This document shows, one piece after another, positions 1,788-21,854 of a stretch of DNA of 64,000 nucleotides. The DNA comes from an uncultured bacterium (lineage in GTDB: Bacteria > Acidobacteriota > Thermoanaerobaculia > Multivoradales > JAHZIX01), in the NCBI GenBank assembly GCA_965368975.1, contig CBDUPA010000010.1, forward strand, positions 64,001 through 128,000. The letters run 5' to 3'. Below the pieces are notes generated by a model. The model saw only the letters and a program-made list of their open reading frames with translations. It did no database searches and was not told where the DNA came from. The first letter of the stretch is position 1. Every line of letters starts with the position of its first letter. The position numbers and the translations under genes were made by a program.

Positions 1788-1794
1788 GCTTACC

Positions 1795-4531: not shown

Positions 4532-4665
4532 GTCCAACTTCGACCGTCACCACGATGGGGCTGCCGGCAAGAGCCGCGCAGCTCCATCGCGTTTTGGAGT
4601 CGAGCTGATGGAACATCGCGCGCCGCGGCGTCGTAAGCCTTAGTGAACCAACGGAGGACCGAACG

Positions 4666-5124: not shown

Positions 5125-5143
5125 ACGTCACCGAAGACGGCGC

Positions 5144-6412
5144 TCACTCGTCGATCATCGCCGCAATCTGGCGCCCGATCGCGATCGAAGCGGTGGCTCC
5201 GGGCGAAGGTGCGTTGAGCACGTGCACCATGCGCTGGGCGCGCACGATGTGGAAGTCGTCCAGCAGCCTGCCCTGGGAATCCAGCGCCTGCGCCCGGACT
5301 CCGGCACCCCCAGGCTCGACGTCGTCGTCTTCGAGTTCCGGAATCAGCCGGCGCAGCGCGCGCACGAAGGCCGCACGGCTGAGCGAGCGGTACACCTCGC
5401 CGCAGCCGATCACCGCGTGACGCGCGGCCAGGCGCCAGAAGCCGAAGTAGCTCAACGTTTCGAGGCTATCGCGCAGATTGACCTGACCCCAGCTGTAGCC
5501 ATCGCGCGCCAATGCCAGCACCGCGTTCGGCCCCGCCTCTACCTGTCCATCGAAAACGGTGCGCGTGAAGTGCACACCGAGGAACGGGAAGCGCGGGTCG
5601 GGAACCGGGTAGATCAGATTCTTGACCAGGTGGCGGCGGTCCGGACGCAGGTCATAGTACTCGCCGCGGAAGGGCACGATGCGGGCCCCCGGATCGACAC
5701 CGGCGAGACGCGCCAGGCGATCACTCCAGGCACCGGCACAGTTGATCAACAAGCCGCAGCGCACGGCACCGCGCGAGGTTTCGAGCACGAGATCACCGCC
5801 ACCAGGCTGCTCGCCCTGAGCTGACTCGCCGCCCGCGGCGTCGCGCCTTATCTTGGTGACCCGCCAACCGGTGCGCACCTCACCTTCGCCCTCCTCGATC
5901 CGACGAGCATAGGTGCGGGCGACCTCGGGATAGTCGACGATTCCGGTGTCTGGCACATACAGACCGTCCATGCCCGCCACATGCGGCTCGTATTGCTGCA
6001 ACTCGGCAGCGGACAGTCGGCGCAGGCCCACCAGACCGTTGGCTCGACCGCGGCGCTCCAATTCGTCGAGACGCGGCACTTCTTCTTCGGACAAGGCCAC
6101 GACCAGCTTGCCACAGCGTTCGTGACGGATCTCGTGCTCGGCACAGAACCGGTAGAGGTCTTCACGCCCTTCGGTACACGTCTGCGCCTTGAGCGATCCC
6201 GGCTCGTAGTACAGGCCTGAGTGGATGACACCACTGTTGTTGCCGCTCTGGTGGGCCGCCAGCCGATCTTCCCCTTCGAGCAAGACCAAGCGCCGCCGCG
6301 CTCCACCCTGCCCGGACCGCGTCCCCCACGGAGGCGGCGCTGCTAGCGCCATGGCCGTCGCCAGCCCCACGAGGCCCCCCCCAACGACTGCGATGTCGAA
6401 CCGCTCACTCAT
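5144..6412 (-). CDS. lhgO: L-2-hydroxyglutarate oxidase (FAD-dependent)
   Basis: VVGGGLVG FAD motif, HQSGNNSGVIHSGLYY, FRGEYY, YPVPDPRFPFLGVHFT, NAPSPGATAS; start taken at MSERFD. Confidence 0.9.
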   Translation of the reverse strand: MSERFDIAVVGGGLVGLATAMALAAPPPWGTRSGQGGARRRLVLLEGEDRLAAHQSGNNSGVIHSGLYYEPGSLKAQTCTEGREDLYRFCAEHEIRHERCGKLVVALSEEEVPRLDELERRGRANGLVGLRRLSAAELQQYEPHVAGMDGLYVPDTGIVDYPEVARTYARRIEEGEGEVRTGWRVTKIRRDAAGGESAQGEQPGGGDLVLETSRGAVRCGLLINCAGAWSDRLARLAGVDPGARIVPFRGEYYDLRPDRRHLVKNLIYPVPDPRFPFLGVHFTRTVFDGQVEAGPNAVLALARDGYSWGQVNLRDSLETLSYFGFWRLAARHAVIGCGEVYRSLSRAAFVRALRRLIPELEDDDVEPGGAGVRAQALDSQGRLLDDFHIVRAQRMVHVLNAPSPGATASIAIGRQIAAMIDE

Positions 6413-6460
6413 GACAACACGCTCTCTTTCCTTCGCGAATCCAAGCACTCGCCTGCAGGT

Positions 6461-8914
6461 TCACTCGTCGCGCAGCGCCACCACCGGGTCCACCCGCGTA
6501 GCCCGGCGCGCCGGAATCCAGAGCGCACACAGCGCCGAGGCGACCAGCACCAGCAGCGCGATTACCAGCAGCGCCGGCTCGAACGGCGCCACCTGATAGA
6601 GCTGCACCTGCATCGCACGGCTGAGCCAGAAGGCCATCGGCAGGCCGAGCAGCAAGCCTGTCAGCACCCAGCGTAATCCCTGCCCGAGCACCAGGCCGTG
6701 GACGCGACCATGATCGGCTCCAAGGGCCATGCGCAGACCGATCTCGCGCCGCCGCTGACGCACCAGGTAAGCCAACACGCCATAGACACCGAGCACGGAA
6801 ACAATCAGCGCGACCCCGGCGAACAGCGCCATCACGGCACCCAGGAAGCGATCGTCTTCGGCCTGCGCGGCGATGCGCGCGCGCATGGTCGAGAGGTTGT
6901 AGCTGGGTACGTCGGGATCGAGACGACGCACCGTCTCCTGCACTGCCCGCCGCTGCGCCCGTGGGTCCTCCGCGCGCACCATGAGCGTCGGGCTGGCGGG
7001 CGGAGACTGGTACAGCGGTACGTAGATGTCGAGCCCGGGCCCCGATTGCAGGACGTCCTTGAGCTGGCGCGCCATCACCGTCTCGACGACGCCGACCACC
7101 GTCATCCAGCGCGGCTCGTCCGTCTCCAGCTGCCCAAAGCGCAAGCGCTTGCCGATCACGTCCCCGTCGTTCGGCCAGGCGCGCGCAGCCATGTCGCGGC
7201 TGACGATCGCGACAGACGGCGCATCGAGATCGTCGGAGGGCAAGAAACCACGGCCGCGCAGCACGTCGATGCCGAGCGTGCGGAAATAGGCCGGTGTCAC
7301 CCGCTGGTAATAGGTCCGGACCGGTCTCGGGTCCGGCATCGCCAGGTGGTCCTCGATCACCAGGGAGTTCGCCGACCGCGCATCCGGCGGCGCCAGGCCA
7401 CCGATCCAGGCCGCCGAGTCGACACCCGGCAAGCCCGCGACCTCCGCCTCGAGCTGCCGCAGGTAGGCGAGCAGTTGCTCCCGCTCCTGGTAGCGCGGAT
7501 GCGTCAGGTCGACGTTCAGCGACAACAGCCGGTCGGCGTCGTACCCCGGATCACCGTTCTGCAAATTCTGGAAGCTGCGCACCATCAGACCGGCACCGTA
7601 GAGCAGCGCCAGGGCAAGAGCCAACTCGACCACCACGATGGTCACCAGTGGTCGTGCCCCCGCTCCGACCAGTCGTCCCTCGCCGGACCGCAAGACGTGC
7701 TGCACGTTGCGCAAGGCCGGTAGACGCAGCAACGGCGTCAAACCACAAGCCAGGCCAGCCAGCAGGCCGAGCAGCAAGCAGCCCACGACTACCGGCACAT
7801 CAGCGAAGTCGAGATCGAAGGTACGCGGCGGGATGTCGCTGAGGCCGATCAGCCATTTGCTGGCCAGCAGGCCAGTGAGGAGCCCAACGAAGCTGCCGAT
7901 CAGGCCCAGCATCATTCCTTCGAGCAGCCAGAGCCGAGCCAGCGACCCGGCACCACCTCCCAGGGCCAGGCGCATCGCCATCTCGCGATCCCGACCGGCC
8001 GCTCGAGTGAGTAGCAGTCCAGCAACGTTGACGGCACACAGCAGCAACAATAGGACCGCGGCCAGTAGGCCGACGTGCAGCCGATCGACGATGTGCTGAA
8101 AGAACGCCGTCTGGAGCGTCAGCATCCAGACGCGGAAACCATCATTGGTGTCGGGATAACGCTCGTCGAGCGCGACGGTCACACGCTCCATATCTGCCCG
8201 AGCCTCGCTGTCCGTCACGCCCGGCTTCAGCCTCGCAAGGGTCTGCAGCCGGCGCACGAAGCGCAGTTGCAGATTGTCTCGAATGATCGCCGAGTAGGCG
8301 GAGATCGGCACCCACAAGTGCACCGGGTCCCACCACATGCCGCGAAACGACGCCTCGACGACGCCAACAATAGTGAATGACTGGTTGTTGAGACTGATGA
8401 CTCGGCCCACGATGTCCGGATCACCGCCGAAACGTTGCTGCCAGAGTTCGTGGCTGATCATCACCACCGGAACACTGGCCAACATCTGGTCTTCGGCCTC
8501 TTCGAACGTCCTCCCGACCGCGGTTTCAATGCCCAGCAGAGGAAAGAGGTTCCAGCTCACCAGCTCGCAGTTCAGATGCTCGGCTCGATCGCCACCGGTC
8601 AGAACCACCGAGTACAGCATCGAGCTGACGGCCATGTCTTCGAAGACCCGATTCTCGCGTCGCCAATCCTCGAAGTCCGGGTACGACACCGCACTGCGAT
8701 GGGTGCCCAACTCCGGCTGCGCGGAGACGACATAGCGAAGCCGCTCTGCGTCCTGATAGGGCAAGGGCCGCAGCAGCGTCGCGTAGTAGACGCTGAAGAC
8801 CATCACGACGGCACCCAGGCCCAAGCCCAAGATCAACAGCACCGGCACCAATACCCCCGGCTGCCGAAGCATGCCACGCACCACTACACCGAGCTGTTGC
8901 CAAAGATTCCTCAC
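6461..8914 (-). CDS. Duplicated MacB/FtsX-type ABC permease (ADOP-like, orphan)
   Basis: LLRPLPY..AERL, two MacB periplasmic plus FtsX halves, REMAMRLALG and RRREIGLRMALGA, C-terminal PARRATRVDPVVALRDE; GTG start with AGGAG RBS. Confidence 0.9.
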   Translation of the reverse strand: MRNLWQQLGVVVRGMLRQPGVLVPVLLILGLGLGAVVMVFSVYYATLLRPLPYQDAERLRYVVSAQPELGTHRSAVSYPDFEDWRRENRVFEDMAVSSMLYSVVLTGGDRAEHLNCELVSWNLFPLLGIETAVGRTFEEAEDQMLASVPVVMISHELWQQRFGGDPDIVGRVISLNNQSFTIVGVVEASFRGMWWDPVHLWVPISAYSAIIRDNLQLRFVRRLQTLARLKPGVTDSEARADMERVTVALDERYPDTNDGFRVWMLTLQTAFFQHIVDRLHVGLLAAVLLLLLCAVNVAGLLLTRAAGRDREMAMRLALGGGAGSLARLWLLEGMMLGLIGSFVGLLTGLLASKWLIGLSDIPPRTFDLDFADVPVVVGCLLLGLLAGLACGLTPLLRLPALRNVQHVLRSGEGRLVGAGARPLVTIVVVELALALALLYGAGLMVRSFQNLQNGDPGYDADRLLSLNVDLTHPRYQEREQLLAYLRQLEAEVAGLPGVDSAAWIGGLAPPDARSANSLVIEDHLAMPDPRPVRTYYQRVTPAYFRTLGIDVLRGRGFLPSDDLDAPSVAIVSRDMAARAWPNDGDVIGKRLRFGQLETDEPRWMTVVGVVETVMARQLKDVLQSGPGLDIYVPLYQSPPASPTLMVRAEDPRAQRRAVQETVRRLDPDVPSYNLSTMRARIAAQAEDDRFLGAVMALFAGVALIVSVLGVYGVLAYLVRQRRREIGLRMALGADHGRVHGLVLGQGLRWVLTGLLLGLPMAFWLSRAMQVQLYQVAPFEPALLVIALLVLVASALCALWIPARRATRVDPVVALRDE

Positions 8915-9182
8915 GCACACTCCTACTGCAGGTCTATAGGTGACCGATTCTAAAAGTGGCCCCCTGGAATTGCAATGAGGCACTCGCACTCGTTGGCACT
9001 CACGACCTGAGTACCGACCAGGGCAACACCGGGATGCCGGGCAGAAGCAATGGAGCATACGAATGCTCACGCAGATGAAGCGAAATTAATGCGCAATGAC
9101 GAATAGGAAAGACAAAGAAAAATGCACCCGCTCAGGGTGCATCGAAAAGAGAGAACGCGCCGCGCCGTGGGGGCGTGGCGAT

Positions 9183-9707
9183 TCAGTCCAAGGAAAGAAC
9201 CGAAGGCCGCTCGGCGGTCCCTTCCAAACTGCCCTCGGTCACCAATTGGTCAGCACGCGCCACGATGCGCGCCAGATCGTCAGAGGTCAACTCTGCCTCG
9301 GGGAAGTCCTCGGGCCGCAAGACACGCCGCGCTTCGGTCGCGGTTGCAGGCACCGACGCCACTTCTGGCTCGACCGGCTCGGCAAGCTGCGCCAGAGCCG
9401 CGATCGTCGGGTGCTCGAAGAGCTGACGCGAGGTCAGCGCCAAGCCCTGCTGGTGCGCCTTGGCCACGATCCGCACGCTCAGGATCGAGTCCCCACCGAG
9501 GTCGAAGAAGTTATCGTGAATCCCCACGCGCTCTGCCCCGAGCACGTCCTGCCAGATAGCCGCCAAGCGTGCCTCTTCTGGCGTCCTCGGTTCCGCTGAC
9601 TCAACCTCCAACCACGAGAGATCCATGCTCTCGTCCTGCAAGCACAAGGCCAGCAGCTTGCGCTTGGCTGGCGAGAGGCCGTCGATGCGATGCAGGAGTC
9701 CGTCCAT
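9183..9707 (-). CDS. Stand-alone peptidyl carrier protein with NRPS docking/COM-like termini
   Basis: PRTPEEARLAAIWQDVLG..VGIHDNFFDLGGDSI (phosphopantetheine Ser), LFEHPTIAALA; N-terminal LSPAKRKLL; C-terminal PEDFPEAELTSDDL; AAAGGTGA RBS. Confidence 0.85.
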   Translation of the reverse strand: MDGLLHRIDGLSPAKRKLLALCLQDESMDLSWLEVESAEPRTPEEARLAAIWQDVLGAERVGIHDNFFDLGGDSILSVRIVAKAHQQGLALTSRQLFEHPTIAALAQLAEPVEPEVASVPATATEARRVLRPEDFPEAELTSDDLARIVARADQLVTEGSLEGTAERPSVLSLD

Positions 9708-10153
9708 GATGTCACCTTTCATCAGATCACATAGAGTGCTGGTATCTATCCATCCATCCATCCCACCGGCGGAGCTGCACGCTCCGGCAAGGGCCGGCGT
9801 CAATGGGAAGTTCAACTCCACCCGGCATGCTGTTCATTTGATTGTAGAAGCTGCGGTGCGCCTGTCGACCGAACTGACTGGCGTGTGCCCGCTTCTGTTG
9901 ATTAACACTGTCCGCAAGGCAGTAAACCGGGACAACAATCTACACGAAGTACTTCGCGAAAGCCCACGGTAAACGCACTTCAAGCAAAATATCAGTGGAG
10001 CAGGCTCAAATAGAACACGGAAAGGCGCCTAGCCCCCAGGGAGTGAGTATGCTACACTCACAAAGCATGGTACCTGAGCTGTACCAGCTAAGAAACTCGG
10101 AAAGCGGGTCTCTCACAGGAAATTCGAACCAGACCCGGAAGGAAGGACACAGA

Positions 10154-12838
10154 ATGCACCCCGAAGATCACGACTCCAAACTGCTCTCTTCCGCCGACGA
10201 CAACACCAACGACAACGACAACACAGCGGCCGAAAGCACTGCAGAGACTGCTATCGAAGAGCCAAGCACCGCTGCTCCGATCCACGCAACCATGACCCTG
10301 CCAGTGCTTCCGATGCGCCAGAGCGTGCTCTTCCCGCACGCCACCTCGCCGACCGCGGTCGGCCGAGCCGGCAGCTTGCGAGCGGTCGAGAAGGCACTCA
10401 AGACTTCAGAGAAGCTGATCTTCGTCGTCAGCCAGCGCCAACCCTCGGAGCAGGTCGCGCCGGAAGACCTCTACACCATAGGCACAGTGGCCCGCATCGA
10501 CCAGATCCAGCGCGGCTTGGCTGGCGTGCAGTTACTGCTGCGCGGCCTGCACCGCGGTATCGCGGTCCGCATCCGCAAGGAGGGCGATCAGCTCGAAGCC
10601 GTCCTGCGCCCGGCCGAGGAAATGCAACCGCTCGACGCCCAGGACTCAACCTACCTGGCCCTCACGCGCGAGCTGCAGCAGCGCGCCGCGGAGCTGGGCC
10701 AGAAGTCCGGTCTGCCACGCGAAGCAGTGCAACAGGTGCTCTCCGGGCTCCAGGAGCCCGGCCCCCTGAGCGACGTCATCGCCGGGTACCTGGACATCTC
10801 GACCAGCGAAGCCCAGGAACTGCTCGAGACCCTGTCGATCGAGGAGCGCATGCGGCGCGTGCTCGTCCACGTGCAGCGGCAGATCGCCGTCCTCAGCGCC
10901 CAGGAAGAGATCAAGGACAAGGTGCAGGCTGAACTGGGCGATCGCCAGCGCGAAATCGTCCTGCGCGAGCAGATGAAGGCGATCCAGAAGGAACTCGGCG
11001 GCGAGGACGACGGCGAAGACCTAGAAGAACTGCGCGTCAAGCTCGACGAACTGGATCTCTCCGACGAAGTGCGCAAAGAGGTCGACCGCGAGTTCCGCCG
11101 GTTGTCGCGCCTGGGCCGCGAATCGATGGAATCACAGGTAGTGCGCAACTACCTCGAGACCATCACCGAGCTTCCCTGGTCCGAGCGTAGCGACGAACAG
11201 CTCGACCTGCAGCACGCTCAGGACGTCCTGGACCGCGATCACTACGGCCTCGAGGAGGTCAAGGATCGCGTCCTCGAGTTCCTCGCCGTCCACCAGTTGC
11301 GCCAACGCCGTGAAGAAGCCGCACACGCAGAAGAATCGGCGCAAGCGGAGAAGACAGCACAGGCGGAGAAGGCAGTGCCGACGGACACACAAGCCACCGA
11401 CACCCAAACCTCCCCCAACCTGCGAGCCAGCAAGCGCAGTCCGATCCTGCTGTTCGCTGGCCCTCCCGGCGTCGGCAAGACGTCAGTGGCACGCTCGATC
11501 GCCGACGCCATGAGCCGCAAGTACGTGCGTATCTCGCTGGGCGGCGCCCGCGACGAAGCGGACATCCGCGGTCATCGTCGCACCTACGTCGGCGCCATGC
11601 CGGGACGCATCATCCAGGGCATGAAGCAGGCCGGCACTCGCAACCCCGTCTTCCTGCTGGACGAGATCGACAAGCTCGGCGCCTCCTTCCACGGCGACCC
11701 CTCGGCCGCCCTGCTCGAGGTGCTCGACCCGGCACAGAACAACGCCTTCGTCGACCACTATCTGGGCGTCCCCTTCGACCTTAGCGAGGTCATGTTCATC
11801 GCTACCGCCAACGTCCTCCAGAGCATTCCGGCGCCGCTGCTCGACCGCATGGAAGTGGTCGACTTCAGCGGCTACACGGAAGCCGAGAAATTGGCCATCG
11901 CCCGCCAGTACCTGCTACCACGGCAGCTCGAAGAAAACGGCCTGGACGCACAGCAGCTGACGGTCGACGACAGCGGCCTGGGCCAGATCATCACGTCCTA
12001 CACGCGCGAGGCTGGCGTCCGGCAGCTCGAGCGTCAGCTCGGCAAGCTGTGCCGCAAGGTGGCGCGCAAGGTAGCCGGCAGCGGTACGCAGACCGACAGC
12101 GAGACAGACGCGAGCCCGCAGACCTTCACCATTGGCGGCGACAACGTCACCGACCTGCTCGGCCGCCCGCGGATCTACCCGGAGCAAGCGGCGCGCAAGG
12201 ACCAGGTGGGCGTCGCCACGGGCATGTACTACACCGCCGCTGGTGGCGACATCATTTTTGTCGAGGCCACCGCGATGCCCGGCAAAGGACGCCTGCGGCT
12301 CACCGGCCAGCTCGGAGAGGTGATGCAGGAGTCCGGTCACGCAGCCTGGGCCTATGCGCGAACTCACGCCGATGCCCTGCACATCGACCATGACGACCTG
12401 GCCAACATCGATGTGCACATCCACTGCCCAGCGGGCGCCGTGCCCAAGGACGGACCGTCGGCCGGCGTCGCCATGGCCAGCGCCCTGATCTCCCGGCTGT
12501 CCGGGCGCGCTGCGCGTCATGACGTCGCCATGACCGGCGAGATCACCCTCACCGGCCGCGTGCTGCCGATCGGCGGCGTCAAGGAGAAGGTACTCGGCGG
12601 CGTGCGCGCCGGCATCCACACCTTCCTGCTCCCCAAAGCCAATGGGCCAGACCTGGAAGATCTGCCCGAAGACGTGCGCGCCAAGGTCCGGATTCACTTG
12701 GTCGAGCACCTGGGCGAAGCGCTGGCCATCACGCTGCGCGACGCCAGTTACCGCGAAGGTCGCCTGCTGTTCGACAACGAACGACCGGAAGATGTGGTCC
12801 CCCTGGTGCCCTCGATCCCGTCGCAGCTGTCACACTGA
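10154..12838 (+). CDS. lon: ATP-dependent Lon protease
   Basis: LPVLPMRQSVLFP (Lon N-domain), Walker A GPPGVGKT, GHRRTYVGAMPG, catalytic PKDGPSAG and GGVKEK. Confidence 0.95.
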   Translation: MHPEDHDSKLLSSADDNTNDNDNTAAESTAETAIEEPSTAAPIHATMTLPVLPMRQSVLFPHATSPTAVGRAGSLRAVEKALKTSEKLIFVVSQRQPSEQVAPEDLYTIGTVARIDQIQRGLAGVQLLLRGLHRGIAVRIRKEGDQLEAVLRPAEEMQPLDAQDSTYLALTRELQQRAAELGQKSGLPREAVQQVLSGLQEPGPLSDVIAGYLDISTSEAQELLETLSIEERMRRVLVHVQRQIAVLSAQEEIKDKVQAELGDRQREIVLREQMKAIQKELGGEDDGEDLEELRVKLDELDLSDEVRKEVDREFRRLSRLGRESMESQVVRNYLETITELPWSERSDEQLDLQHAQDVLDRDHYGLEEVKDRVLEFLAVHQLRQRREEAAHAEESAQAEKTAQAEKAVPTDTQATDTQTSPNLRASKRSPILLFAGPPGVGKTSVARSIADAMSRKYVRISLGGARDEADIRGHRRTYVGAMPGRIIQGMKQAGTRNPVFLLDEIDKLGASFHGDPSAALLEVLDPAQNNAFVDHYLGVPFDLSEVMFIATANVLQSIPAPLLDRMEVVDFSGYTEAEKLAIARQYLLPRQLEENGLDAQQLTVDDSGLGQIITSYTREAGVRQLERQLGKLCRKVARKVAGSGTQTDSETDASPQTFTIGGDNVTDLLGRPRIYPEQAARKDQVGVATGMYYTAAGGDIIFVEATAMPGKGRLRLTGQLGEVMQESGHAAWAYARTHADALHIDHDDLANIDVHIHCPAGAVPKDGPSAGVAMASALISRLSGRAARHDVAMTGEITLTGRVLPIGGVKEKVLGGVRAGIHTFLLPKANGPDLEDLPEDVRAKVRIHLVEHLGEALAITLRDASYREGRLLFDNERPEDVVPLVPSIPSQLSH
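11321..11374 (+). repeat. 3x18-bp degenerate in-frame tandem repeat in a Lon insertion (AHAEES/AQAEKT/AQAEKA)
   Basis: gcacacgcagaagaatcg gcgcaagcggagaagaca gcacaggcggagaaggca, followed shortly by TDTQA-TDTQT. Confidence 0.7.
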
Positions 12839-12916: not shown

Positions 12917-15900
12917 ATGCTGTACACTGGGGCGCCTAGAGATCGGACTTCTATGCCCTGCCCTTTATACTGGTTGTGCCGCTCCCCATCGCGCTTCGCG
13001 TTCTTGGGTTTCCTCCTGCTGCTGCTGGCCTCACCCACAGCTGCCTTGGAACCCGACCGCCAGGTCACGCAGTACATCCACGACACCTGGCCCGTCACCG
13101 CGGATCTACACAGCGCCGGCCCGATCGAGATTCGCGCGTTGGCCCAGACAGGGGACGGCTTCCTGTGGCTGGGCACCTCGGCCGGCTTGGTCCAGTTCGA
13201 CGGTGTCCGGTTCCAGAGCGTCGACTTCGAGGACGTGCGCTTCGAGCGAACCGCCGAGGGCCACCCAGACGCCTGGGAAATCTATAGCCTGCTCACCGAC
13301 GCCCGCGGCACCCTGTGGATCGGGCATCAGCTCGGCCTGGCCTCACTGACCCCCGACGACCCCAGCCGGCAGCCGCAACGCCACCGCATCCCGAGTCGGC
13401 AGGTGCTGAGTCTGACGCAAAGCGGCCCGGACAGCCTGTGGCTGGGGACACGGCGCAACGGCGCCTCCAAGTACACTCCGCAGCTCGATTCCCTCCGCGA
13501 ATCGGCGGCAGGCGACCACTCGAGCGCCGCCGAGGGCGTGCTGGAACATAGCCTCCTGGAGCCCGTCAGCGTGCCAGCATTGGTCGAGGATCCACGGCGC
13601 CAGCGCCTGTGGCTCGGTACGACCAACGGCCTGACGGAGATCGACTGGAGCCAGCCTGAACCGTCGGTCGTCCGCACCTGGGGCCTCGACGACGGCCTGA
13701 CCACCCCGCAGGTTCAAGCACTCTGCCGTGGCGCCGACGGCAGCTTGTGGATCGGCACACGAACCGGACTGCACCGCCTGCTGCGCGAGAACCTGGAACC
13801 GATCCCCGAATTCGCCGGCACCAGCGTCACGGCAATGTATCGTGACCGCAGCAACGACCTGTGGGTCGGTACCGAGGACCAGGGCGTGTGGCTACTGCGT
13901 ACCGGCACTTGGCAGCAGTTGCCGCTCCCGAGCCGTCTCGATCCAACCACCTCCCCCCGCGTCTCCAGCTTCCTCCAGGACAGCGACGGCAGCCTGTGGA
14001 TCGGCACCGCGGACGCCCAACTGCACCAACTCAAGGACGGCCAGTACCGCAGTTTCGGACCAAGCGAAGGCATGAGCACTATCGGCGCTCGCCACGTCGC
14101 CGAGGACCGCACCAGTGGTGACATCTGGGTGACCACCAATGATGCTCGCCTCAATCTCATCCGGCGACAAAAGGTAGTGCCACTGCCACCGCCTCTGAAG
14201 CGTGCGCTGGAAGACCCGAACAATAACCAGCAGCTGAGCGCACTCTACCAAGCGCCTGACGGACCTCTGTGGATGGGTACACGCGATGGCGTCCTGTGGC
14301 GCTACGAGAACGGTGACCTGACCTCGATCCAGCTCCCTAGCACGGCCTATGGCGAGAAGGCCTGGGCACACACCATCGCACAAGACGCTGACGGCAACCT
14401 CTGGGTCGGCACGCTGCAGGACGGCCTCTTCAGGCTACGCCCGGATGGAACCGGTCATCAGCACTTCACCATCGCCAATACCGAGCACCTACCGCACAAC
14501 ACCATCCGCGTGTTGTTCCTGGACTTCTACCGACGGCTCTGGATCACCACCCTCGACGGTGTCACCTACTATCGTGACGGCCGCTTCGCCAGTCCCAACG
14601 ATCCTCTGCTCGAGCGCCTGCCTCGATTCGTCCACTCCTTCTATGAAGACAGCCAGCACACCCTCTGGATGGGCACCGAGGGTGGCCTCTACTGGCTCCA
14701 CCAGGGCCAGGTCGACTATCTCGATTACAGCCGCGGCCTGTACAACGACATCATCTACGCCATCGCGGCCGACGAGTATGGCCAACTCTGGTTCGGAACC
14801 CAAGCCGGAATCTTTTACATCCAGCAACCTGAGCTCAAGGCCTTGATGAACGGGGAGCAGCAGACCGTCACCTCGATCCCGCTGGCCAACCAGCAAGAAA
14901 TCGAGTGCTATGGCCCCCGTCCCAACATCGGTACCGCGGCACGCGACGGATCGATTTACTTCGCCACCACCAGTTCCCTGGTGCAGATCGATCCAGCCAA
15001 AGTTTCGCCGCCGGCACCACCGCCGATCATCATCGAGTCGATCATCGCCGACGGCGAGGAGCTCCCCCACCAGGAGACCATCCTCCTGTACGCCGGCGTG
15101 CGCAAGCTGGAGATCTTCTTCACCTCTCCTTACCTCAAAGAGCCCGGCCGACTGATCTTCAGCTACAGGATGCAAGGACTGCCACAAGGCGCGACCATCG
15201 CCACCGAACGCAAGGCAGTCTTCACCAACCTGACTCCCGGAGACTACCGCTTCGACGTCTGGGCCGAGCAACTCGACGGCGCCGACACCCCTATCACCTC
15301 GTGGCGGCTGCGCATCGAACCACCCTACTACCAGCGCCCGCCGGTGCAGGCCCTGGCTCTGCTGCTGCTACTGGTTGTCGGCCGCGGCATCTACCGCCTG
15401 CGTCTACAGCAGCTGCTGAGCCGCAACCAGGACCTCGAAGACACGATCGCCGAGCGCACCGCCGAGGTCATCGAGCAACGCGAACAACTGCGCCTGCACA
15501 ACCGGCAACTGGCACACGCCAACCAAGAACTGCAGCACGCCAACGAGCAGCTACAAGACCTCAACCGGCAGAAGGCGGACTTCTTGGCCATCGCTGCCCA
15601 CGACCTGCGCACACCCCTGGTCAACCTCAAAGGCTTCGCCAGCGAGACAGGCCTGCTGCTCGGACGACTTTTCGAGGTCGCCGCACCGGTTCTCGAAGAG
15701 CACGCGCCACACAGCCGCGAGCAGCTGCAAGAACTCCTGCACGAGGAGGCGCGAGAATCGCTCGAGTACATCCACAGCTCGACCGACCGCATGGACGCAT
15801 TGATCAAGGGCATCCTGATGCTGTCGCGCCTCGGGCGGCGCCAGCTGCAACTGGAGAGTGTCGACCTGCAGGAGCTGGCACGCCAGGTCCTGGGCAATCT

Positions 15901-16321
15901 GAGCTACGAGGTCGTGCGCAAGAAAGTGCGCGTCAACGTCGGCTCGCTGCCCAGCGTGACCGCCGATCTGTCCGCGATGGAACAGACGCTGGAAAACTTG
16001 CTGCGCAACGCTGTCAGCTATCTCGACCCGAGCCGTACCGGCGAGGTCGACATCCGCTCCGAACGGCACGCCGACGAAGTACGCGTCCACATCCGTGACA
16101 ATGGCCGCGGTATCGCCCCCAACCAACGCGACAAGGTATTCAAGATCTTTGGCCGCGCGGGGCGCAACGACGACGTGCCCGGTGAAGGCATCGGCCTCGC
16201 CTCTGTGCGCACCCTGATCGAACGTCACGGCGGGCGGATCTGGTTCGAGTCCGAGGTCGGAGTCGGTACCACCTTCACCTTCAGCCTCCCCGATCCCCCC
16301 GTCCGTGCGGTGACGAGCTGA
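12917..16321 (+). CDS. Sensor histidine kinase with periplasmic two-component-regulator beta-propeller and Y_Y_Y domain
   Basis: Many D..G.LW.GT blades, AVFTNLTPGDYRFDV (Y_Y_Y), TM helix, coiled coil, H-box AAHDLRTPL, N-box NLLRNA, DNGRGI, GEGIGLA; true start may be ATG 12953. Confidence 0.92.
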   Translation: MLYTGAPRDRTSMPCPLYWLCRSPSRFAFLGFLLLLLASPTAALEPDRQVTQYIHDTWPVTADLHSAGPIEIRALAQTGDGFLWLGTSAGLVQFDGVRFQSVDFEDVRFERTAEGHPDAWEIYSLLTDARGTLWIGHQLGLASLTPDDPSRQPQRHRIPSRQVLSLTQSGPDSLWLGTRRNGASKYTPQLDSLRESAAGDHSSAAEGVLEHSLLEPVSVPALVEDPRRQRLWLGTTNGLTEIDWSQPEPSVVRTWGLDDGLTTPQVQALCRGADGSLWIGTRTGLHRLLRENLEPIPEFAGTSVTAMYRDRSNDLWVGTEDQGVWLLRTGTWQQLPLPSRLDPTTSPRVSSFLQDSDGSLWIGTADAQLHQLKDGQYRSFGPSEGMSTIGARHVAEDRTSGDIWVTTNDARLNLIRRQKVVPLPPPLKRALEDPNNNQQLSALYQAPDGPLWMGTRDGVLWRYENGDLTSIQLPSTAYGEKAWAHTIAQDADGNLWVGTLQDGLFRLRPDGTGHQHFTIANTEHLPHNTIRVLFLDFYRRLWITTLDGVTYYRDGRFASPNDPLLERLPRFVHSFYEDSQHTLWMGTEGGLYWLHQGQVDYLDYSRGLYNDIIYAIAADEYGQLWFGTQAGIFYIQQPELKALMNGEQQTVTSIPLANQQEIECYGPRPNIGTAARDGSIYFATTSSLVQIDPAKVSPPAPPPIIIESIIADGEELPHQETILLYAGVRKLEIFFTSPYLKEPGRLIFSYRMQGLPQGATIATERKAVFTNLTPGDYRFDVWAEQLDGADTPITSWRLRIEPPYYQRPPVQALALLLLLVVGRGIYRLRLQQLLSRNQDLEDTIAERTAEVIEQREQLRLHNRQLAHANQELQHANEQLQDLNRQKADFLAIAAHDLRTPLVNLKGFASETGLLLGRLFEVAAPVLEEHAPHSREQLQELLHEEARESLEYIHSSTDRMDALIKGILMLSRLGRRQLQLESVDLQELARQVLGNLSYEVVRKKVRVNVGSLPSVTADLSAMEQTLENLLRNAVSYLDPSRTGEVDIRSERHADEVRVHIRDNGRGIAPNQRDKVFKIFGRAGRNDDVPGEGIGLASVRTLIERHGGRIWFESEVGVGTTFTFSLPDPPVRAVTS

Positions 16322-18718
16322 ATGAGACACCAGAGCCGATGCCCCCTGCGCACCTTGCTGCTGCCGACTTTGGTAGTCCTGCTGACTGCCTCGGTGTCCG
16401 GTCCTCTGTGGGCCCTTGACCCCGAGACGCCGCTGAGCGAGCTCCAGATCGACACCTGGACTCCCCAGGAGGGCCTGCCCAACAGCTCTGTGCCTGCGAT
16501 CGCCCAGGACACGCCGGGGTATATGTGGATCGGTACCGAACAGGGGCTCACCCGCTTCGACGGCCTCAACTTCCACACCCTGACCACCAAAGACAGTCGC
16601 GCACTACCCAGCAACACCATTTCGGCCATCACGCCGAGTCCGGACGGCAGCCTGTGGATTGGAACCCGCTACGGTCTGGCTCTGCTGCAGCAAGGCCGCC
16701 TGCTGGCGCCGCGCAACACCATGCTGCAGACCCCAATCAACGAAATCGAGCTGGACCTCGATCAGCAGCGGCTGTGGATCGCGTCCCTCAGCGGCCTGGC
16801 GGAGTACGACACAGAGACACAGACCGTCACCCGTCGCTACGAGCGTATAGAGAAGCTGCACGAGTTGACCGGACACCAGGAGCAACGCAGCACGACGCTG
16901 GCCGTGTTGCCCGACGACGACATTCATGCCCTGCTCATGGACGACGACGGCAGCCTGTGGCTGGGAACCAACAACTCCGGCCTCTTGTTGCTGCGTGACA
17001 GCAGAATCACCATCATTCCCACCGAACCCTCGAACAATCGCCCGTTGCTGATTCTCTCCTTGCAGCGACATCCGGTCCACGGCCTGCTGGCCGGCACGGT
17101 CGGGCAGGGTGTCTGGCAGCTGCGCGACGGCAACCTGGTTCGCTTCGAGCCGACTCTCGATACGCTGCTGATCGCCTTCGAAATGCTGACCGACCGCGAC
17201 GAGAACCTGTGGATAGCGGGCTACAACCAGATTGCGCGTGTGACCCGCGAGGGTCTCGCCGAAGTCATCGCCCCCCCCGTAGGACAGGCTGTCTACGCCC
17301 TGGCCGAAGACCTGCGTGGCGACATCTGGTACGGCACGACCGAAGGCGGCCTCAGCCGCGTGCGCGACCCACGCCGACGCCAGGGCCCGAGCACCCAGGG
17401 TGCCGAAGCACCGCTACCTCGGCTGGAACAGATCCTGGTCAACCGGGCAGAGATCTCCGCGGATGCCCTCAAGAGCCCCGTGTCCGGCAACATCGACCTG
17501 GCTTTCCGCTTCAGCATCTTGGCCCTGCGCGACCAAGAACAGCTGCGTGTCGGCTGCCGCCTGCAAGGGCTCGAAGACGAATGGCGTGCCCTGGGACCTC
17601 GCCGCGGTGTCGACTACACCAACGTACCACCAGGCTCCTACACGTTCGAGATCGCCGTCCGGCGCCAGGGCGAAGACGACGAAGTGACGCTCAGCCACGC
17701 CTTCCTCATCCCACGGCCGATCTACCGGACTTGGCCCTTCTACCTCGCGCTGCTCGCTTTCGCTGCCTTCCTCAGTCGTACCTTCTACCGCTTGCGGGTA
17801 CGGCGCGTCTTGCAGCGCAAGCGGCGTCTCGAGGCCAAGGTCGAGGCTCGGAAGAACGAGATCCTGAACCAGACGAAGCGTCTGGCCGACCTGCAAGAAC
17901 AGCGCGAGCAAGCGCACCTGCAGCTGCGCCAAGCCAACCGTGAACTCAAGACCTTGAACCGTGAGAAGACCGACTTCCTGGCGATCGCCACTCACGACCT
18001 GCGCACTCCACTGCTCAACGCCAAAGGCTTCGCCGGTGAGCTGCGGGTCGCCCTCGACGAGGTGCGCGCCGTGCTGCAGCCCGCGCTGGAGAACCTGTCC
18101 GAGCGGGATCGCCAGGAGATCGAGGCGATCCTCGACCAAGAGCTGCCCGAAACCATGGGCTTCATCGACTCGGCCGCCGACAGCATGACCCGGCTGATCG
18201 ATCCCATCCTCAAGCTGTCCCGCTTCAGCCGCTGCGAGTTGACCTTCTTGGAACTCGACCTCGACACGCTGGCAAGAAGTGTCAAACTCGCCCTCGAGCC
18301 TCTACTCGAAGAATCCAAGGCGCGCTTGGTACTCGAGCCGCTACCAACCATCCAGGCGGACCCGGCGGCCTTGGAAGAAGTTCTACGCCAGATGTTGCGC
18401 AACGCCCTGCACTACCTCGACCCCCACCGTCCCGGCGAAGTCCGCGTCTACGGTGACCGCGGCAAAGACACCACGACAATTCACGTGCGCGACAATGGCG
18501 TCGGCATCTCCGCCGAGCAAGAAGCCAAGGTCTTTCGCCTCTTCGGCCGCGGCGGCCAGACCAGCGCTCCCGGTCGCGGCATGGGCCTGGCCTATGTGCG
18601 CACACTGATCCAGCGCCACGGTGGCCACGTCTGGTACGTGTCGCAGCCCAAGCGCGGTACCACCTTCAGCTTCAGCATCCCCAATCAACCCCTCAAGCCC
18701 GAAGAGCATCTCATCTAA
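16322..18718 (+). CDS. Second, shorter beta-propeller sensor histidine kinase (paralogue)
   Basis: ATG directly follows the upstream TGA; signal peptide, GLPNSSV..IAQD..GYMWIGT, YTNVPPGSYTFE, ATHDLRTPL, DNGVGI, GRGMGLA. Confidence 0.92.
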   Translation: MRHQSRCPLRTLLLPTLVVLLTASVSGPLWALDPETPLSELQIDTWTPQEGLPNSSVPAIAQDTPGYMWIGTEQGLTRFDGLNFHTLTTKDSRALPSNTISAITPSPDGSLWIGTRYGLALLQQGRLLAPRNTMLQTPINEIELDLDQQRLWIASLSGLAEYDTETQTVTRRYERIEKLHELTGHQEQRSTTLAVLPDDDIHALLMDDDGSLWLGTNNSGLLLLRDSRITIIPTEPSNNRPLLILSLQRHPVHGLLAGTVGQGVWQLRDGNLVRFEPTLDTLLIAFEMLTDRDENLWIAGYNQIARVTREGLAEVIAPPVGQAVYALAEDLRGDIWYGTTEGGLSRVRDPRRRQGPSTQGAEAPLPRLEQILVNRAEISADALKSPVSGNIDLAFRFSILALRDQEQLRVGCRLQGLEDEWRALGPRRGVDYTNVPPGSYTFEIAVRRQGEDDEVTLSHAFLIPRPIYRTWPFYLALLAFAAFLSRTFYRLRVRRVLQRKRRLEAKVEARKNEILNQTKRLADLQEQREQAHLQLRQANRELKTLNREKTDFLAIATHDLRTPLLNAKGFAGELRVALDEVRAVLQPALENLSERDRQEIEAILDQELPETMGFIDSAADSMTRLIDPILKLSRFSRCELTFLELDLDTLARSVKLALEPLLEESKARLVLEPLPTIQADPAALEEVLRQMLRNALHYLDPHRPGEVRVYGDRGKDTTTIHVRDNGVGISAEQEAKVFRLFGRGGQTSAPGRGMGLAYVRTLIQRHGGHVWYVSQPKRGTTFSFSIPNQPLKPEEHLI

Positions 18719-19048
18719 ACCTGATCCGCTCGATCAAAAAAATAGACACAACACTTTACCGCAAGCGGCTAGTACTCATCCGGCAAACCGCAATCCGACC
18801 TTCCCGCCCGCCACCCTCCTCGCTTCATGGCCAAAAAATTACCCCACCTAATACTTAAGAATAAAACCTGCTTCAAACTTATATATAATTTTACACATGA
18901 ATAATCAGCCTGCTGAAGGCATATATATATCATGGCTCTTGGCAAGCCAGGGCGTATTGAAATAAACCGGCTTCCGTGCCCCTCTAATCTCTTTCAACAG
19001 ATCAATCCGCCCATCACGCCAGAACTGAAGGAAAATCCCAAAAAATCC

Positions 19049-19078
19049 TTGACATCAATAAATGAGGCGAAGGATAAT
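19049..19078 (+). promoter_or_regulatory. sigma70-type promoter of the borosin precursor
   Basis: TTGACA (19049-19054)-N18-GATAAT (19073-19078), preceded by A-tracts, in an AT-rich 468-bp intergenic region. Confidence 0.7.
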
Positions 19079-19186
19079 CACGTATTGGCCACGGAGGAGG
19101 GACCTGGCCCAGACGCAATTCGGGGACCTAGTTCATCAAACCGCTGTCGATCTTGAGGAGGATCGACACACAGAGGAGGTGTACCC

Positions 19187-19423
19187 ATGTCTGCTACCCT
19201 GACTCATTTTCTGATCGAAGTCGGAGAAAACCCTCACAAGATGATCGAGCTGCAGCGTAACCCAGAAGAAATTCTGCGCGCTGCCGGCCTGCCGGCCGAC
19301 GCGGCCGACGCCGTGCTCCACCGTGATGCTGAACGCATCACGCATCTGCTGTCCGGCGAGGCCGAAGTCCTGCCGGCGATCTTCCAGATCACCACCGCCC
19401 TGGAGGATCTGCACGCTAGCTGA
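19187..19423 (+). CDS. Split-borosin RiPP precursor peptide (borosin-binding domain plus C-terminal core)
   Basis: Strong GAGGAGGT RBS. LTHFLIEVGENP..MIELQRNPEEILRAAGLP...DAVLHRD matches the helical leader pattern I recall for SonA-type precursors. C-terminal core EVLPAIFQITTALEDLHAS. Adjacent to a borosin methyltransferase. Confidence 0.85.
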   Translation: MSATLTHFLIEVGENPHKMIELQRNPEEILRAAGLPADAADAVLHRDAERITHLLSGEAEVLPAIFQITTALEDLHAS

Positions 19424-19511
19424 AGCTCGTCGCCTGCTGCTCTCCTGAGCCCAACCGTCCCCGATCCGGGCTCTTTGAGCGGCTGAGCCGCGAACCGAAG
19501 CGAACTCGACG

Positions 19512-19556
19512 CTCCGGGCTTGGCGATCAAAGCCGGGCCCGGAGTTTCGTGTTTCT
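19512..19556 (+). terminator. Stem-loop with T-rich tail between precursor and methyltransferase (leaky terminator or stabiliser)
   Basis: ctccgggc (19512-19519) / gcccggag (19537-19544) followed by tttcgtgtttct. Confidence 0.55.
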
Positions 19557-19618
19557 GGACGTACGATTCCCAGAATCTTTCGTGCGGCCACGTGCCGCAC
19601 CAGTAGGAGTCCCAGGGC

Positions 19619-20476
19619 GTGAGTGAAGACAACGGCAAGTCGGCAAGAGTTCAAACAGCAGGAAGTTTGTGTGTGGTCGGTACCGGCATACGTTCGGTCG
19701 GGCAGACCACGATTGAAACCAGAAACCTGATCGAGCAGGCCCGCGTTCTCATGTATCTCGTGGCCGATCCGATCACCGAAGCGTGGATCCGCAAGCTCAA
19801 TCCGCGCGCCGAATCGCTGGCGGACAGTTATCTCGACGGCCGGCGGCGCATCGAGACATACCGCGAGATCGTCGAGAGGATGCTGACACGCGTGCGCGAA
19901 GGCCACGATGTCTGTGCCGTGTTCTATGGCCATCCGGGCGTCTTCGTCTATCCGTCGCACGCCGCCATCCGGCAGGCACGCGAAGAAGGCTTCCAGGCTT
20001 TCATGCTGCCCGGCGTCTCCGCCGAGGACTGCCTGTTCGCCGACCTGGGCGTCGATCCTGGCGATCAGGGCTGCCAGAGCTTCGAAGCCACCGATTTCGT
20101 GCTGCGGCAGCGCCGCTTCGATCCCACCAGTCACCTCGTGATCTGGCAGATCGGCGTTCTCGGCAAGGTCTCCCACACGGCTGCCGAACGCCGCCGCCAG
20201 GGAAGCCTCGACGTGCTGGTCGACAGCCTCAGCCCGCACTATGACGACGACCACCCGGTCACCGTCTACGAGGCGCCGCAGTATGCCGTCTGCGCACCGG
20301 TGATCCACACGATGCCCCTGCGGGAGCTGCGCGACTCCGAGGTATCGGTGCTGTCAACCCTCTACGTATCACCGCTACCCGCGCGGCCCAACGATCCGGT
20401 CGTCTTGGAGCGGCTGGGACTACGACCGATGGAACCATCGACACCAGTCGAGACATCGACCCAGCCCGAAGCCTGA
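19619..20476 (+). CDS. Borosin alpha-N-methyltransferase (SAM-dependent, TP-methylase fold)
   Basis: GSLCVVGTGI, Y..G..R..TY, VFYGHPGVF, MLPGVSAEDCLFADLGVDP, GCQSFEATDF, HLVIWQIG are hallmark OphMA/SonM motifs; GTG start with AGGAG RBS. Confidence 0.92.
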   Translation: MSEDNGKSARVQTAGSLCVVGTGIRSVGQTTIETRNLIEQARVLMYLVADPITEAWIRKLNPRAESLADSYLDGRRRIETYREIVERMLTRVREGHDVCAVFYGHPGVFVYPSHAAIRQAREEGFQAFMLPGVSAEDCLFADLGVDPGDQGCQSFEATDFVLRQRRFDPTSHLVIWQIGVLGKVSHTAAERRRQGSLDVLVDSLSPHYDDDHPVTVYEAPQYAVCAPVIHTMPLRELRDSEVSVLSTLYVSPLPARPNDPVVLERLGLRPMEPSTPVETSTQPEA

Positions 20477-20534: not shown

Positions 20535-21854
20535 TCAAGCCGCCAAGATTTCGCGCAGGATGGCGATGTTGTCGCGGTGGCCGGTGAGGCGGGCGGTAAC
20601 TCTACCGCGCACGGGGAAACCGAGCAGGTAGAGATCGCCCACGATGTCCAGGATCTTGTGGCGCACGAACTCGTCCGGGAAGCGGAGCTCGGTGTTGATG
20701 ACGTTGTCTTCGCCCACCAGGATGAAGTTATCGAGCCGGCCGCCGGAGCCGAGGCCCAGCTCGTTGAGCATCTTGACGTCCTTCATGAAACCGAAGGTGC
20801 GGGCCGGCGCGATCTCGCGCAGATAAGTATCGAAATCGCTCAGTTCAAAAGCGAAGAACTGGTCGCCGATCGGCGACGGATACCGCAGCTGGTAGGAGAC
20901 CGCGAAGCCATCGTACGGTTCGAGGGTCAGGCCTTTCTCGCCGTCGCCGCCGACATGGTAGGGACGATCGACCACCAGTTCGCGCCGCGGCGCTGCCTGG
21001 TCGACGACTCCGACCTCTTCCAGCTTGCGGCAGAACTCCAGCGCCGAGCCATCGAGAACGGGGATCTCGCCGTGCACCTTGATCAGTAGGTTGGTAACGC
21101 CGGCCGCGTGCAGGGCAGACAGCAAGTGCTCGACGGTGCGAATGCTCTCCCCACCGCGGCTCAACGTGGTCGCGTAGTCGGTCTCGGCGACTTCGTCGAC
21201 ATGAGCAGGAATGAGGGTGCCGCTGGGAATCGTCAGCATGTGGATGCCGCTGTCGGGCGGCAGCGGCTGCAGCACCATGCCGGTACGCGTGCCCGAGTGC
21301 AGCCCGAGGCCGTAGATCACCGTGTTCTCGCGCAGCGTCCGCTGCGGCAGCTCGCCAACACGTACCTGGGGCAGGCTGCGTGGCGCCTGCAACTTCGGCT
21401 GCAGCGTCTTCCAGGTCCCGGTATCGAGTGCTGTCGCCTCCAGCTCAGCCGCATCCTCATCGACTGCTGGCAGTTCGCCGGACGCGTCCCGCAACGTATC
21501 TTCGACGGCACCGACGATGCGCTCGTAGGACAGCGGCTTCTCGATGTAGTCGATGGCCCCGAGCTTGAGTGCACGCACCGCGGTCGACGTGGTGCCGTGC
21601 CCCGAGATCATGATCACGAGGGCCTCGGGATCGAGCTGGCGCAGGGCACGCAGCGTTTCGAGGCCATCGCGATCGGGAAGCCAGATATCCAGGAAGACGA
21701 GACAGGGCCGATGCTCGCGGTAGAGCTCGATCGCCTCTTCTCCACTGGCAGTGGTGAGAGCTCGGTAGCCCTCGTCTTCGAGGATCTGTGAGACGGTGGT
21801 CAGAATACCCGGCTGGTCGTCAACGATCAGGATTTGCTTACTCTCGGCGCTCAT
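20535..21854 (-). CDS. lpxC: Response-regulator receiver domain fused to UDP-3-O-acyl-GlcNAc deacetylase
   Basis: REC: IVDD, FLDIWLP, ISGHG, IEKP. LpxC: QRTL, GLHSG, TVEHLLSAL, LDGSA, ARTFGF, EFVRHKILDIVGDL, TGH. Confidence 0.9.
   Translation of the reverse strand: MSAESKQILIVDDQPGILTTVSQILEDEGYRALTTASGEEAIELYREHRPCLVFLDIWLPDRDGLETLRALRQLDPEALVIMISGHGTTSTAVRALKLGAIDYIEKPLSYERIVGAVEDTLRDASGELPAVDEDAAELEATALDTGTWKTLQPKLQAPRSLPQVRVGELPQRTLRENTVIYGLGLHSGTRTGMVLQPLPPDSGIHMLTIPSGTLIPAHVDEVAETDYATTLSRGGESIRTVEHLLSALHAAGVTNLLIKVHGEIPVLDGSALEFCRKLEEVGVVDQAAPRRELVVDRPYHVGGDGEKGLTLEPYDGFAVSYQLRYPSPIGDQFFAFELSDFDTYLREIAPARTFGFMKDVKMLNELGLGSGGRLDNFILVGEDNVINTELRFPDEFVRHKILDIVGDLYLLGFPVRGRVTARLTGHRDNIAILREILAA

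Follow-up and report, generated by a model that had tools for sequence, protein, structure and literature searches.

A probable Type IV split borosin gene pair within a conserved, kinase-linked block of an Acidobacteriota genome

To our knowledge, borosins are the only ribosomal route to peptides with N-methylated backbones, a modification valued for membrane permeability and protease resistance, and the bacterial borosin products that we know of are few, none of them with a known biological role. Among these peptides, which are made by the ribosome and modified after translation (RiPPs), split borosins were defined on the SonM/SonA pair, as described in PMC8429565; a 2021 survey counted more than 1,600 bacterial borosin pathways and assigned 746 of its 947 network nodes to Type IV (10.1101/2021.12.24.474128), a 2024 RODEO study reported 2,699 borosin methyltransferases (10.1101/2024.01.09.574750), and shewanellamide A, presented in PMC10549244 as the first bacterial product, comprises SonA residues 56-71 with two methylations and is described there as having no antibiotic activity. 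Here we analyse a gene pair at positions 19187..20476 of a 64,000-nucleotide stretch of an uncultured, Thermoanaerobaculia-like Acidobacteriota genome (contig CBDUPA010000010.1, positions 64,001 to 128,000; hereafter the window), which we consider highly probable to be a Type IV split borosin RiPP pair in a kinase-linked block, with a core N-methylated somewhere in A64-T69. The system belongs to a kind already published, of which thousands of pathways have been mined, and is nothing new in this respect; specific to this locus are its P-x-I/V-F-x-Q core type, the conserved kinase block, a second borosin pair in the same genome and a rare pepsin-like peptidase.

The pair consists of a precursor gene of 78 amino acids (19187..19423, plus strand; an open reading frame (ORF) with an ATG start) and a stand-alone borosin alpha-N-methyltransferase of 285 amino acids with a single TP_methylase-fold domain (19619..20476, plus strand; GTG start), both of them present where a previous reading of this DNA (the sequence-only reading) had placed a peptide gene followed by a methyltransferase. 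A Shine-Dalgarno-like GAGGAGG, read from the sequence, lies 7 nt 5′ of the precursor ATG (19173..19179, plus strand), and the GTG start has an AGGAG 9 nt upstream. Precursor residues 1-57 (19187..19357, plus strand) make up a helical leader of the borosin-binding-domain type, and residues 58-78 (19358..19420, plus strand) the linker and core, EAEVLPAIFQITTALEDLHAS, of which the core given in the sequence-only reading, EVLPAIFQITTALEDLHAS, covers residues 60-78. No Pfam or NCBIfam family matched the precursor. Two features of Type IV systems are thus present: a single-domain enzyme to which no docking domain, core or further catalytic domain is fused, and a separate short precursor (78 residues, within the 50-100 of the type) that has its borosin-binding domain at the N-terminus and one core at the C-terminus. 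A chance pair of ORFs is excluded at the level of sequence, because the enzyme and SonA matches described below coincide with homologous pairs in the same order in related genomes and because 67 of the 80 best related loci have a borosin-binding-domain ORF at most 3 kb from the methyltransferase (searched with a hidden Markov model (HMM) of nine precursor sequences). Across the whole genome (107,689 ORFs of at least 35 amino acids), we found exactly two borosin-binding-domain peptides, both of which are in the search HMM, and two methyltransferases, and these are paired. The GC content of the pair (0.60-0.67) is the same as that of its flanks, and the GC profile carries no compositional trace of a recent transfer of the pair. 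We conclude that the pair is real and intact, and very probably functional as a Type IV split borosin.

Comparison with solved structures placed the enzyme among the borosin methyltransferases. PF00590 (TP_methylase; 1.8e-20, residues 17-218) is its sole Pfam domain, no second domain, MazG included, having been found on the 285 residues in the Pfam search, and its best structural relatives over residues 13-271 are dbOphMA (2.2e-61), OphMA (3e-61), SonM (6.5e-58, with homology spanning residues 15-271) and MroMA (1.8e-57), followed by CbiF as the next-best solved family (E = 1.9e-3). This interval, from about 2e-61 for dbOphMA to 2e-3 for CbiF, bears out the earlier assignment to backbone N-methyltransferases of the SonM/OphMA type, and a profile of 41 relatives matched solved borosin enzymes at 3e-89 and 3.9e-85. 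Throughout the 41 sequences, Y71, R77, Y81, Y103-G-H-P-G107, D137-C-L and W176 do not vary, conservation of F109 and E156 is at least 90%, and the segments FYGHPGVF (residues 102-109) and SAEDCLFADLG (134-144) are invariant or nearly so; the two motifs singled out in the sequence-only reading, YLDGRRRIETY and YGHPG, were recovered at residues 71-81 and 103-107. Direct alignment sets Y71, R77, Y81 and Y103 on dbOphMA Y66, R72, Y76 and Y98 (counted from its stated first residue), and the mapping onto SonM comes from offsets and mutant-chain scores: a constant offset of +10 carries SonM R67, Y71, Y93, F99, E146 and W166 to R77, Y81, Y103, F109, E156 and W176. PMC8429565, where the roles of the catalytic SonM residues were studied, gives chains 7ltf, 7lth and 7lts as the mutants Y58F, Y93F and R67A, and the profile scores of the SonM chains are 288.4 bits for the wild type, 285.7 each for 7ltf and 7lth, and 284.4 for 7lts. 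Since the drop for Y58F equals that for the YGHPG tyrosine mutant, SonM Y58 would be aligned to an invariant tyrosine, which the alignment-start offset of +13 identifies as Y71, so that the Tyr-to-Arg loop would be 3 residues shorter than in SonM and of OphMA-like length. According to the preprint 10.1101/2021.12.24.474128, the antiSMASH BorosinMT rule is built on the motifs YGHP and DCLFAD, and because both are present the antiSMASH and RODEO rules published for borosins would detect the locus. Of 7,888 candidates, 6,329 are relatives of the enzyme with E ≤ 1e-3, and the sources of many of these label them YabN, precorrin (precorrin-3B) methylase or hypothetical.

The precursor, in turn, resembles SonA in its leader and differs from it in its core. 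A phmmer search of PDB chains aligned residues 5-62 with residues 11-67 of SonA (chain 8t1s_B; E = 6.1e-5), the next PDB match standing at 0.3, in agreement with the SonA-like leader proposed earlier (residues 1-57 against the SonA borosin-binding domain, E = 6e-5). When the precursor is aligned with eight relatives that adjoin borosin methyltransferases, F8, P16, P26, G34 and L35 are invariant and similarity stops after the L-S-G motif. Searched against 1.84 billion proteins, a profile of six family precursors matched 784 cluster representatives with E ≤ 1e-3, and 28 of these reached E ≤ 1e-10; the wider family is visible by profiles alone, a word-index search with the precursor itself having yielded one near-identical metagenome peptide among five candidates. 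The core, as read from the sequence, is visibly without repeats. SonA residues 52-71 are given in PMC10549244 and its methylated positions, L63 and I65, in PMC8429565; placing SonA L53-S54-G55 on precursor L55-S56-G57 brings L63 and I65 onto I65 and Q67, and the stretch AIFQIT, which the sequence-only reading had nominated for methylation, is consistent both with this ungapped register and with the modelled interface described below. A core theme, P-x-[IV]-F-[VQ]-[QI]-[ST]-T-x-x-[ED]-L, is common to two relatives (G001 and G004; G001-G005 denote relatives of the same family as the genome of the window, G000) and a 95%-identical metagenome peptide, and the cores of G005 and G002 have diverged further. 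Among the matches listed, the strict motif occurs in 1 of 149 further representatives, and a looser core of Pro, hydrophobic, aromatic, Val and Gln/Arg could be recognized by eye in about ten of the first 45. We know of no characterised borosin with this core. The earlier description of the precursor as novel holds only in the ordinary sense in which RiPP cores are generally hypervariable, and does not extend to the system, which is a known Type IV.

We modelled the enzyme (41-row alignment) and the precursor (9 rows) together with S-adenosylmethionine (SAM) in three runs with three controls. The complex score was 0.79 in each run (best of the three controls, 0.02), a mark reached by 116 of 157 solved complexes and by 2 of 215 mismatched pairs, and the runs shared at least 86% of contacts, with a partner predicted local distance difference test (pLDDT) value of at least 75. 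In the model, leader residues 6-22 and 43-56 contact enzyme residues 25-28, 47-59 and 220-226, and core residues 64-69 and 71-73 contact enzyme residues 78, 81, 109-111, 156, 158-159, 177, 182 and 184, at or beside Y81, F109 and E156. In the mechanism that we propose, the 78-residue peptide would dock on the SAM-dependent methyltransferase via its N-terminal borosin-binding domain (about residues 1-57), the C-terminal core would thread through the active-site cleft, and the backbone amide nitrogens of A64-T69 would be methylated at one position or a few, likeliest around I65 and Q67, in the N-to-C direction taken by SonM on SonA and with Y71, R77, Y81 and Y103 as the catalytic residues. The linear N-methylated peptide would afterwards be freed by a peptidase whose gene lies outside the pair. 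In silico support for this reading comes from family membership, the catalytic residues, the docking domain and synteny; the methylated positions, the release of the peptide and any kinase link we infer.

Candidate expression signals flank the precursor gene. A promoter-like TTGACA-18-GATAAT with 11 of 12 consensus matches lies 5′ of it (19049..19078, plus strand) in an AT-rich gap, where GC content is 0.47-0.49 across 18600..19199 versus about 0.64 in the flanks, and from it the precursor would be expressed under its own promoter. The two genes are 195 bp apart, and between them a GC-rich hairpin of 14 pairs (10 G-C) with a T-rich run behind it (19511..19555, plus strand) is a candidate partial terminator, which would hold enzyme expression below precursor expression; the region 19415..19625 folds at -98.5 kcal/mol (z -3.99), and none of 200 shuffles was equally stable. 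The corresponding gap measures 55-70 bp in relatives and about 330 bp in G002. Promoter and hairpin are plausible as features typical of a RiPP operon, both at the level of candidates. A scan of 18650..19700 against Rfam brought no family near its gathering score (two matches, E 0.35-0.38), and no riboswitch was evident there. None of the sequencing runs shared as much as a tenth of the words sampled from the stretch (highest share 0.09), and two DNA metagenomes contained a relative about 91% identical across 18995..20428. One 220-nt metatranscriptome contig falls on 19120..19329 with 12 differences; it is not counted as expression because it comes from a relative, its library may contain DNA and contigs show no level.

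To place the pair in its genomic setting, we compared its neighbourhood with those of related genomes of the same family and of other families in the order. Upstream of the precursor stand two sensor histidine kinases in tandem, HK1 (12917..16321, plus strand; 1,134 amino acids, the larger paralog, with Reg_prop propeller, Y_Y_Y, HisKA and HATPase domains in Pfam) and HK2 (16322..18718, plus strand; a signal-peptide-like N-terminus, Reg_prop, Y_Y_Y, HisKA and HATPase domains, and a hydrophobic segment near residues 470-490), the HK1 stop abutting the HK2 start codon and HK2 lying 468 bp upstream of the precursor. At the head of the block is a Lon protease paralog of 947 amino acids (9995..12838, plus strand; Pfam Lon_C, LON_substr_bdg and AAA). 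The block of Lon, HK1, HK2, precursor and methyltransferase is kept in five of the six family genomes: gene order is the same in G001, G005 and G004 (tblastn), the kinase tandem is directly upstream of the precursor in G001, G002, G004 and G005, and Lon adjoins HK1 in G005, G004 (at a contig edge) and G002. G002 carries the block intact, with an 80-residue precursor that had escaped the single-sequence search, next to a malate dehydrogenase gene and about 23 kb from its genes for a LpxC fusion, an RND pump and a membrane-fusion protein (MFP), whereas G003 (94% complete) has neither the methyltransferase nor such a kinase at E ≤ 1e-60. The methyltransferase is found in 11 of 40 relatives screened; with only 25 candidates scored per genome, such kinases (E ≤ 1e-70) occur only in the four block-bearing relatives, two in each and both in the block, and in 0 of 35 genomes of other families in the order. 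Such a kinase stands upstream at only two of the 80 best methyltransferase loci, and these are the same contigs as in G004 and G005; two more show a weaker kinase-core match, downstream and on the opposite strand.

Ortholog identities within the neighbourhood descend from 72-74% for the LpxC fusion, 58-67% for Lon, 54-60% for the methyltransferase and 43-56% for the kinase cores to 26-47% for the leader and 27-30% for the sensor domains, with a peptide core that is not alignable. To judge from these comparisons, the kinase pair and the borosin pair are one inherited block whose outward-facing parts evolve fastest, a pattern compatible with a peptide-sensor relationship. Membership of a block with the kinases makes signalling, not antibiosis, the likeliest context of the biological role, and a kinase-linked signalling role is possible. 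The tandem kinases have no adjacent DNA-binding response regulator. The genome has three Lon genes, the block paralog among them; in the latter the substrate-binding domain starts at residue 101, leaving an N-terminal extension of about 100 amino acids.

Convergent with the methyltransferase is a neighbour outside the system, REC-LpxC, a receiver-LpxC fusion of 439 amino acids (20535..21854, minus strand; Response_reg 1.7e-30, LpxC 5.6e-83), with the RND pump and membrane-fusion protein beyond it. As the sole LpxC of a 7.1-Mb genome, lying about 23 kb from the block in G002, it belongs to the housekeeping backbone, and we rejected LpxC as part of the system for these reasons and because the fusion occurs without a borosin nearby in G006, a genome of another family. 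The suggestion, made from the sequence, that a position between kinases and a phospho-regulated LpxC pointed to a signalling or envelope role thus divides: the kinase neighbourhood is conserved, and the link to LpxC is unsupported. The fusion itself is present in G002 and G006, whereas G007 has LpxC and a similar receiver as two genes with about 3 kb between them. It would be unusual for the committed step of lipid A synthesis to be controlled by phosphorylation, and a literature search at listing level returned nothing on an LpxC-receiver fusion in Acidobacteria. At the other end of the block, a minus-strand run (1795..9821) encodes an amidase, an FAD oxidoreductase (DAO), a MacB/FtsX-type permease and a 212-residue protein with a phosphopantetheine attachment site, the last with an ortholog beside Lon in G005, and is possibly a small lipid- or peptide-tailoring set.

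Two proteins are candidates for maturation of the peptide. The sequence-only reading had stated that there is no dedicated peptidase or transporter; this is right for classical RiPP peptidases and exporters, but the block contains the Lon paralog, a first candidate, and the genome encodes elsewhere a pepsin-like A1 aspartic peptidase, the other candidate. The latter (402 amino acids; PF00026, E = 4.6e-36) combines the motifs DTG and DSG with an N-terminus like that of a lipoprotein, and is encoded on the minus strand of contig C1 (429018..429962; 1477..2685 in locus L109). Bacterial pepsin-like peptidases are rare and tied to borosins according to the preprint 10.1101/2024.01.09.574750. PF00026 was found in 0 of the 40 relatives and 0 of 14 control genomes; because of its absence from the relatives, it is not the general maturase of the block, and we rejected it as a general block partner.

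These observations bear on several other explanations. An enzyme of the corrin/tetrapyrrole or YabN/MazG type beside an unrelated small ORF would fit the Pfam result, which is TP_methylase only, the best NCBIfam model, which is YabN, and the public names ‘precorrin-3B methylase’ and ‘YabN’; yet the score falls far short of the model cut-off both for YabN (48.8 bits, with 525 required) and for the corrin models (12-22 bits, with 163-400 required), solved borosin enzymes match about 58 orders of magnitude better than CbiF, a MazG domain is missing, the peptide matches SonA and the residues specific to borosin enzymes do not vary. The enzyme accordingly does not group with corrin or MazG/YabN methylases, and we regard this identity as refuted at the sequence level and its probability as close to nil. 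A second explanation keeps the borosin pair and changes its product. The preprint 10.1101/2024.01.09.574750 describes SamA1 as methylated once, at Phe52 of a Phe-Phe-Pro motif, and shewasin A as cutting only the methylated form and freeing an unmethylated acidic peptide; by analogy, methylation here might be a cleavage mark and the product the unmethylated acidic tail (about TTALEDLHAS or shorter). The precursor does have a hydrophobic I-F pair followed by a tail with E73 and D74, and the genome does encode a PF00026 protein with both motifs from a family missing from controls and relatives alike. We nonetheless find this unlikely: the four block-bearing relatives are without a PF00026 gene, the N-terminus of the peptidase is lipoprotein-like while the related shewasin D is described as cytosolic (10.1101/2024.01.09.574750), the tail is short and weakly acidic and follows no Phe-Phe-Pro motif, and the enzyme, in a comparison made without a tree, is no nearer the Shewanella clusters than others.

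A third explanation concerns the neighbours. An ordinary Type IV borosin with kinases, Lon and LpxC as co-inherited, unrelated neighbours and no signalling role would account for the restriction of the block to one family, for the precursor's own promoter-like site behind a 468-bp gap, for the lack of such a kinase at 78 of the 80 best methyltransferase loci, for the second pair in G000 and the pair in G018, both without the block neighbours, and for the divergence of the sensor domains, since periplasmic sensor domains diverge quickly in general. Against it, the kinase pair in G002 is still joined to the borosin pair although the downstream flank differs (malate dehydrogenase, not REC-LpxC), G003 lacks kinases and methyltransferase alike, and within the family such kinases occur only inside the block, with none in the other-family genomes; we give it slightly less than an even chance. 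At the opposite end, the N-methylated peptide could be an exported signal sensed by both periplasmic propeller kinases, HK1 and HK2, with the LpxC receiver as a possible target, which we hold to be improbable. If it were true, the block would by itself make up a module for peptide signalling, its signal protected from proteases by backbone N-methylation, and REC-LpxC as a phosphorylation target would couple that signal to outer-membrane lipid A synthesis.

The split-borosin reading held in every in silico test that could be made, and we favour it; several points nevertheless weigh against it or against its parts. It rests on homology, synteny and a model. The complex score may reflect recall of the solved SonM-SonA structures, and so indicate likeness, not binding, and custom alignments and a SAM ligand lie outside the calibration of that score. 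The SonA register beyond residue 62, where the HMMER alignment ends, is an ungapped extrapolation, P63 stands beside the proposed methylation site, and the rules of borosin methylation are termed ‘enigmatic’ in the literature consulted. No peptidase or exporter is assignable to the pair. Promoter-like sites are weak by count (1 versus 0.7 expected in shuffles), hairpin-type sites are, by count alone, not significant (1 versus 1.9 expected), and conservation of the hairpin in relatives is not established. The kinase link, finally, rests on one bacterial family and probably on one evolutionary event; of the 80 best loci, drawn from other records, 78 are without such a kinase upstream.

Other borosins occur in the same genome and in its relatives. 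The second split pair of G000 (contig C2, 172940..174103, minus strand; 553..1713 in locus L004) combines a methyltransferase of 265 amino acids, 54% identical to that of the window, with a precursor of 85 amino acids whose identity is about 25% and whose core, ...PSPIIMLGVQTREIYQATA, differs; the pair lies beside a TPR protein, with no kinases nearby. The pair in G018 is likewise without kinase, Lon or LpxC neighbours. In three genomes of the same order (G033:C39:24468-26059, G007:C12:97693-99215 and G036:C28:27949-29528), there are tandem borosin methyltransferases, or a more distant second copy in a much longer frame (525-538 amino acids), which suggests other borosin architectures in the order. 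Two Acidobacteriaceae loci (L096, 2156..3016; L076, 2306..3025) have a borosin-binding-domain ORF that runs into long repeats (for example, ...ANLIWA..), and these look like multi-core precursors, not Type IV. The best 80 methyltransferase loci come from Acidobacteriota, cyanobacteria, Chloroflexota, actinomycetes and Nitrososphaera archaea; a genome scan with the alignment of relatives gave at least 569 confirmed relatives among 599 pattern matches, and one with the single enzyme gave 0 among 59.

Judged by title and abstract, the papers that our search found on borosins in Acidobacteria treat no such loci, and our search for borosins together with histidine kinases found no treatment of kinase-linked borosins. 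The locus offers an uncharacterised core type for work on substrate scope, and the kinase-linked block, the one feature deserving a bench test, is a concrete, testable lead on the function of bacterial borosins.

Four kinds of described system stand nearest to the locus. In agrBDCA and comQXPA, a small precursor, a modifying enzyme and a membrane sensor kinase stand side by side as a peptide-signal cassette. The layout here is alike, with sensor domains and peptide core diverging fastest, but homology is absent, and the locus has neither an assigned exporter or processing protein nor a cognate DNA-binding regulator beside the kinases. SamM1/SamA1/SamP of Shewanella amazonensis, as presented in 10.1101/2024.01.09.574750, is also a split pair, its precursor fused to a borosin-binding domain, with a genome-encoded pepsin-like A1 peptidase, whereas the peptidase here is on another contig, lipoprotein-like and absent from the relatives that share the block, and neither the Phe-Phe-Pro motif nor the long acidic tail of SamA1 occurs in the precursor. 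The fungal Type I enzymes OphMA and dbOphMA (omphalotin; PDB 5N0O, 6MJF), which score best among its solved relatives (E about 2e-61) when the enzyme of the pair is compared, have the same spacing, Y66-x5-R72-x3-Y76, and the YGHPG tyrosine; in them methyltransferase, clasp and core are fused and self-methylating, while the substrate here is a separate gene. SonM/SonA of S. oneidensis MR-1 (PDB 7LTC, 7LTE) differs in its gammaproteobacterial host (Acidobacteriota here), in its neighbours (a GGDEF protein there, two propeller histidine kinases and a Lon paralog here), in a side-clamp loop 3 residues longer (Y58-x8-R67 in SonM, Y71-x5-R77 here) and in a precursor of marginal similarity (E = 6e-5) with an unrelated core (...YQSYLVISHGNGD in SonA, ...LPAIFQITTALEDLHAS here). 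Neither the SonM/SonA cluster nor the pair in the window encodes a classical RiPP peptidase, and the two have in common a stand-alone methyltransferase of about 260-285 amino acids with the catalytic Tyr/Arg/Tyr/Tyr set and an adjacent, separate precursor of about 70-78 amino acids, built of an N-terminal five-helix borosin-binding domain, a leader that ends in L-S-G and a C-terminal core.

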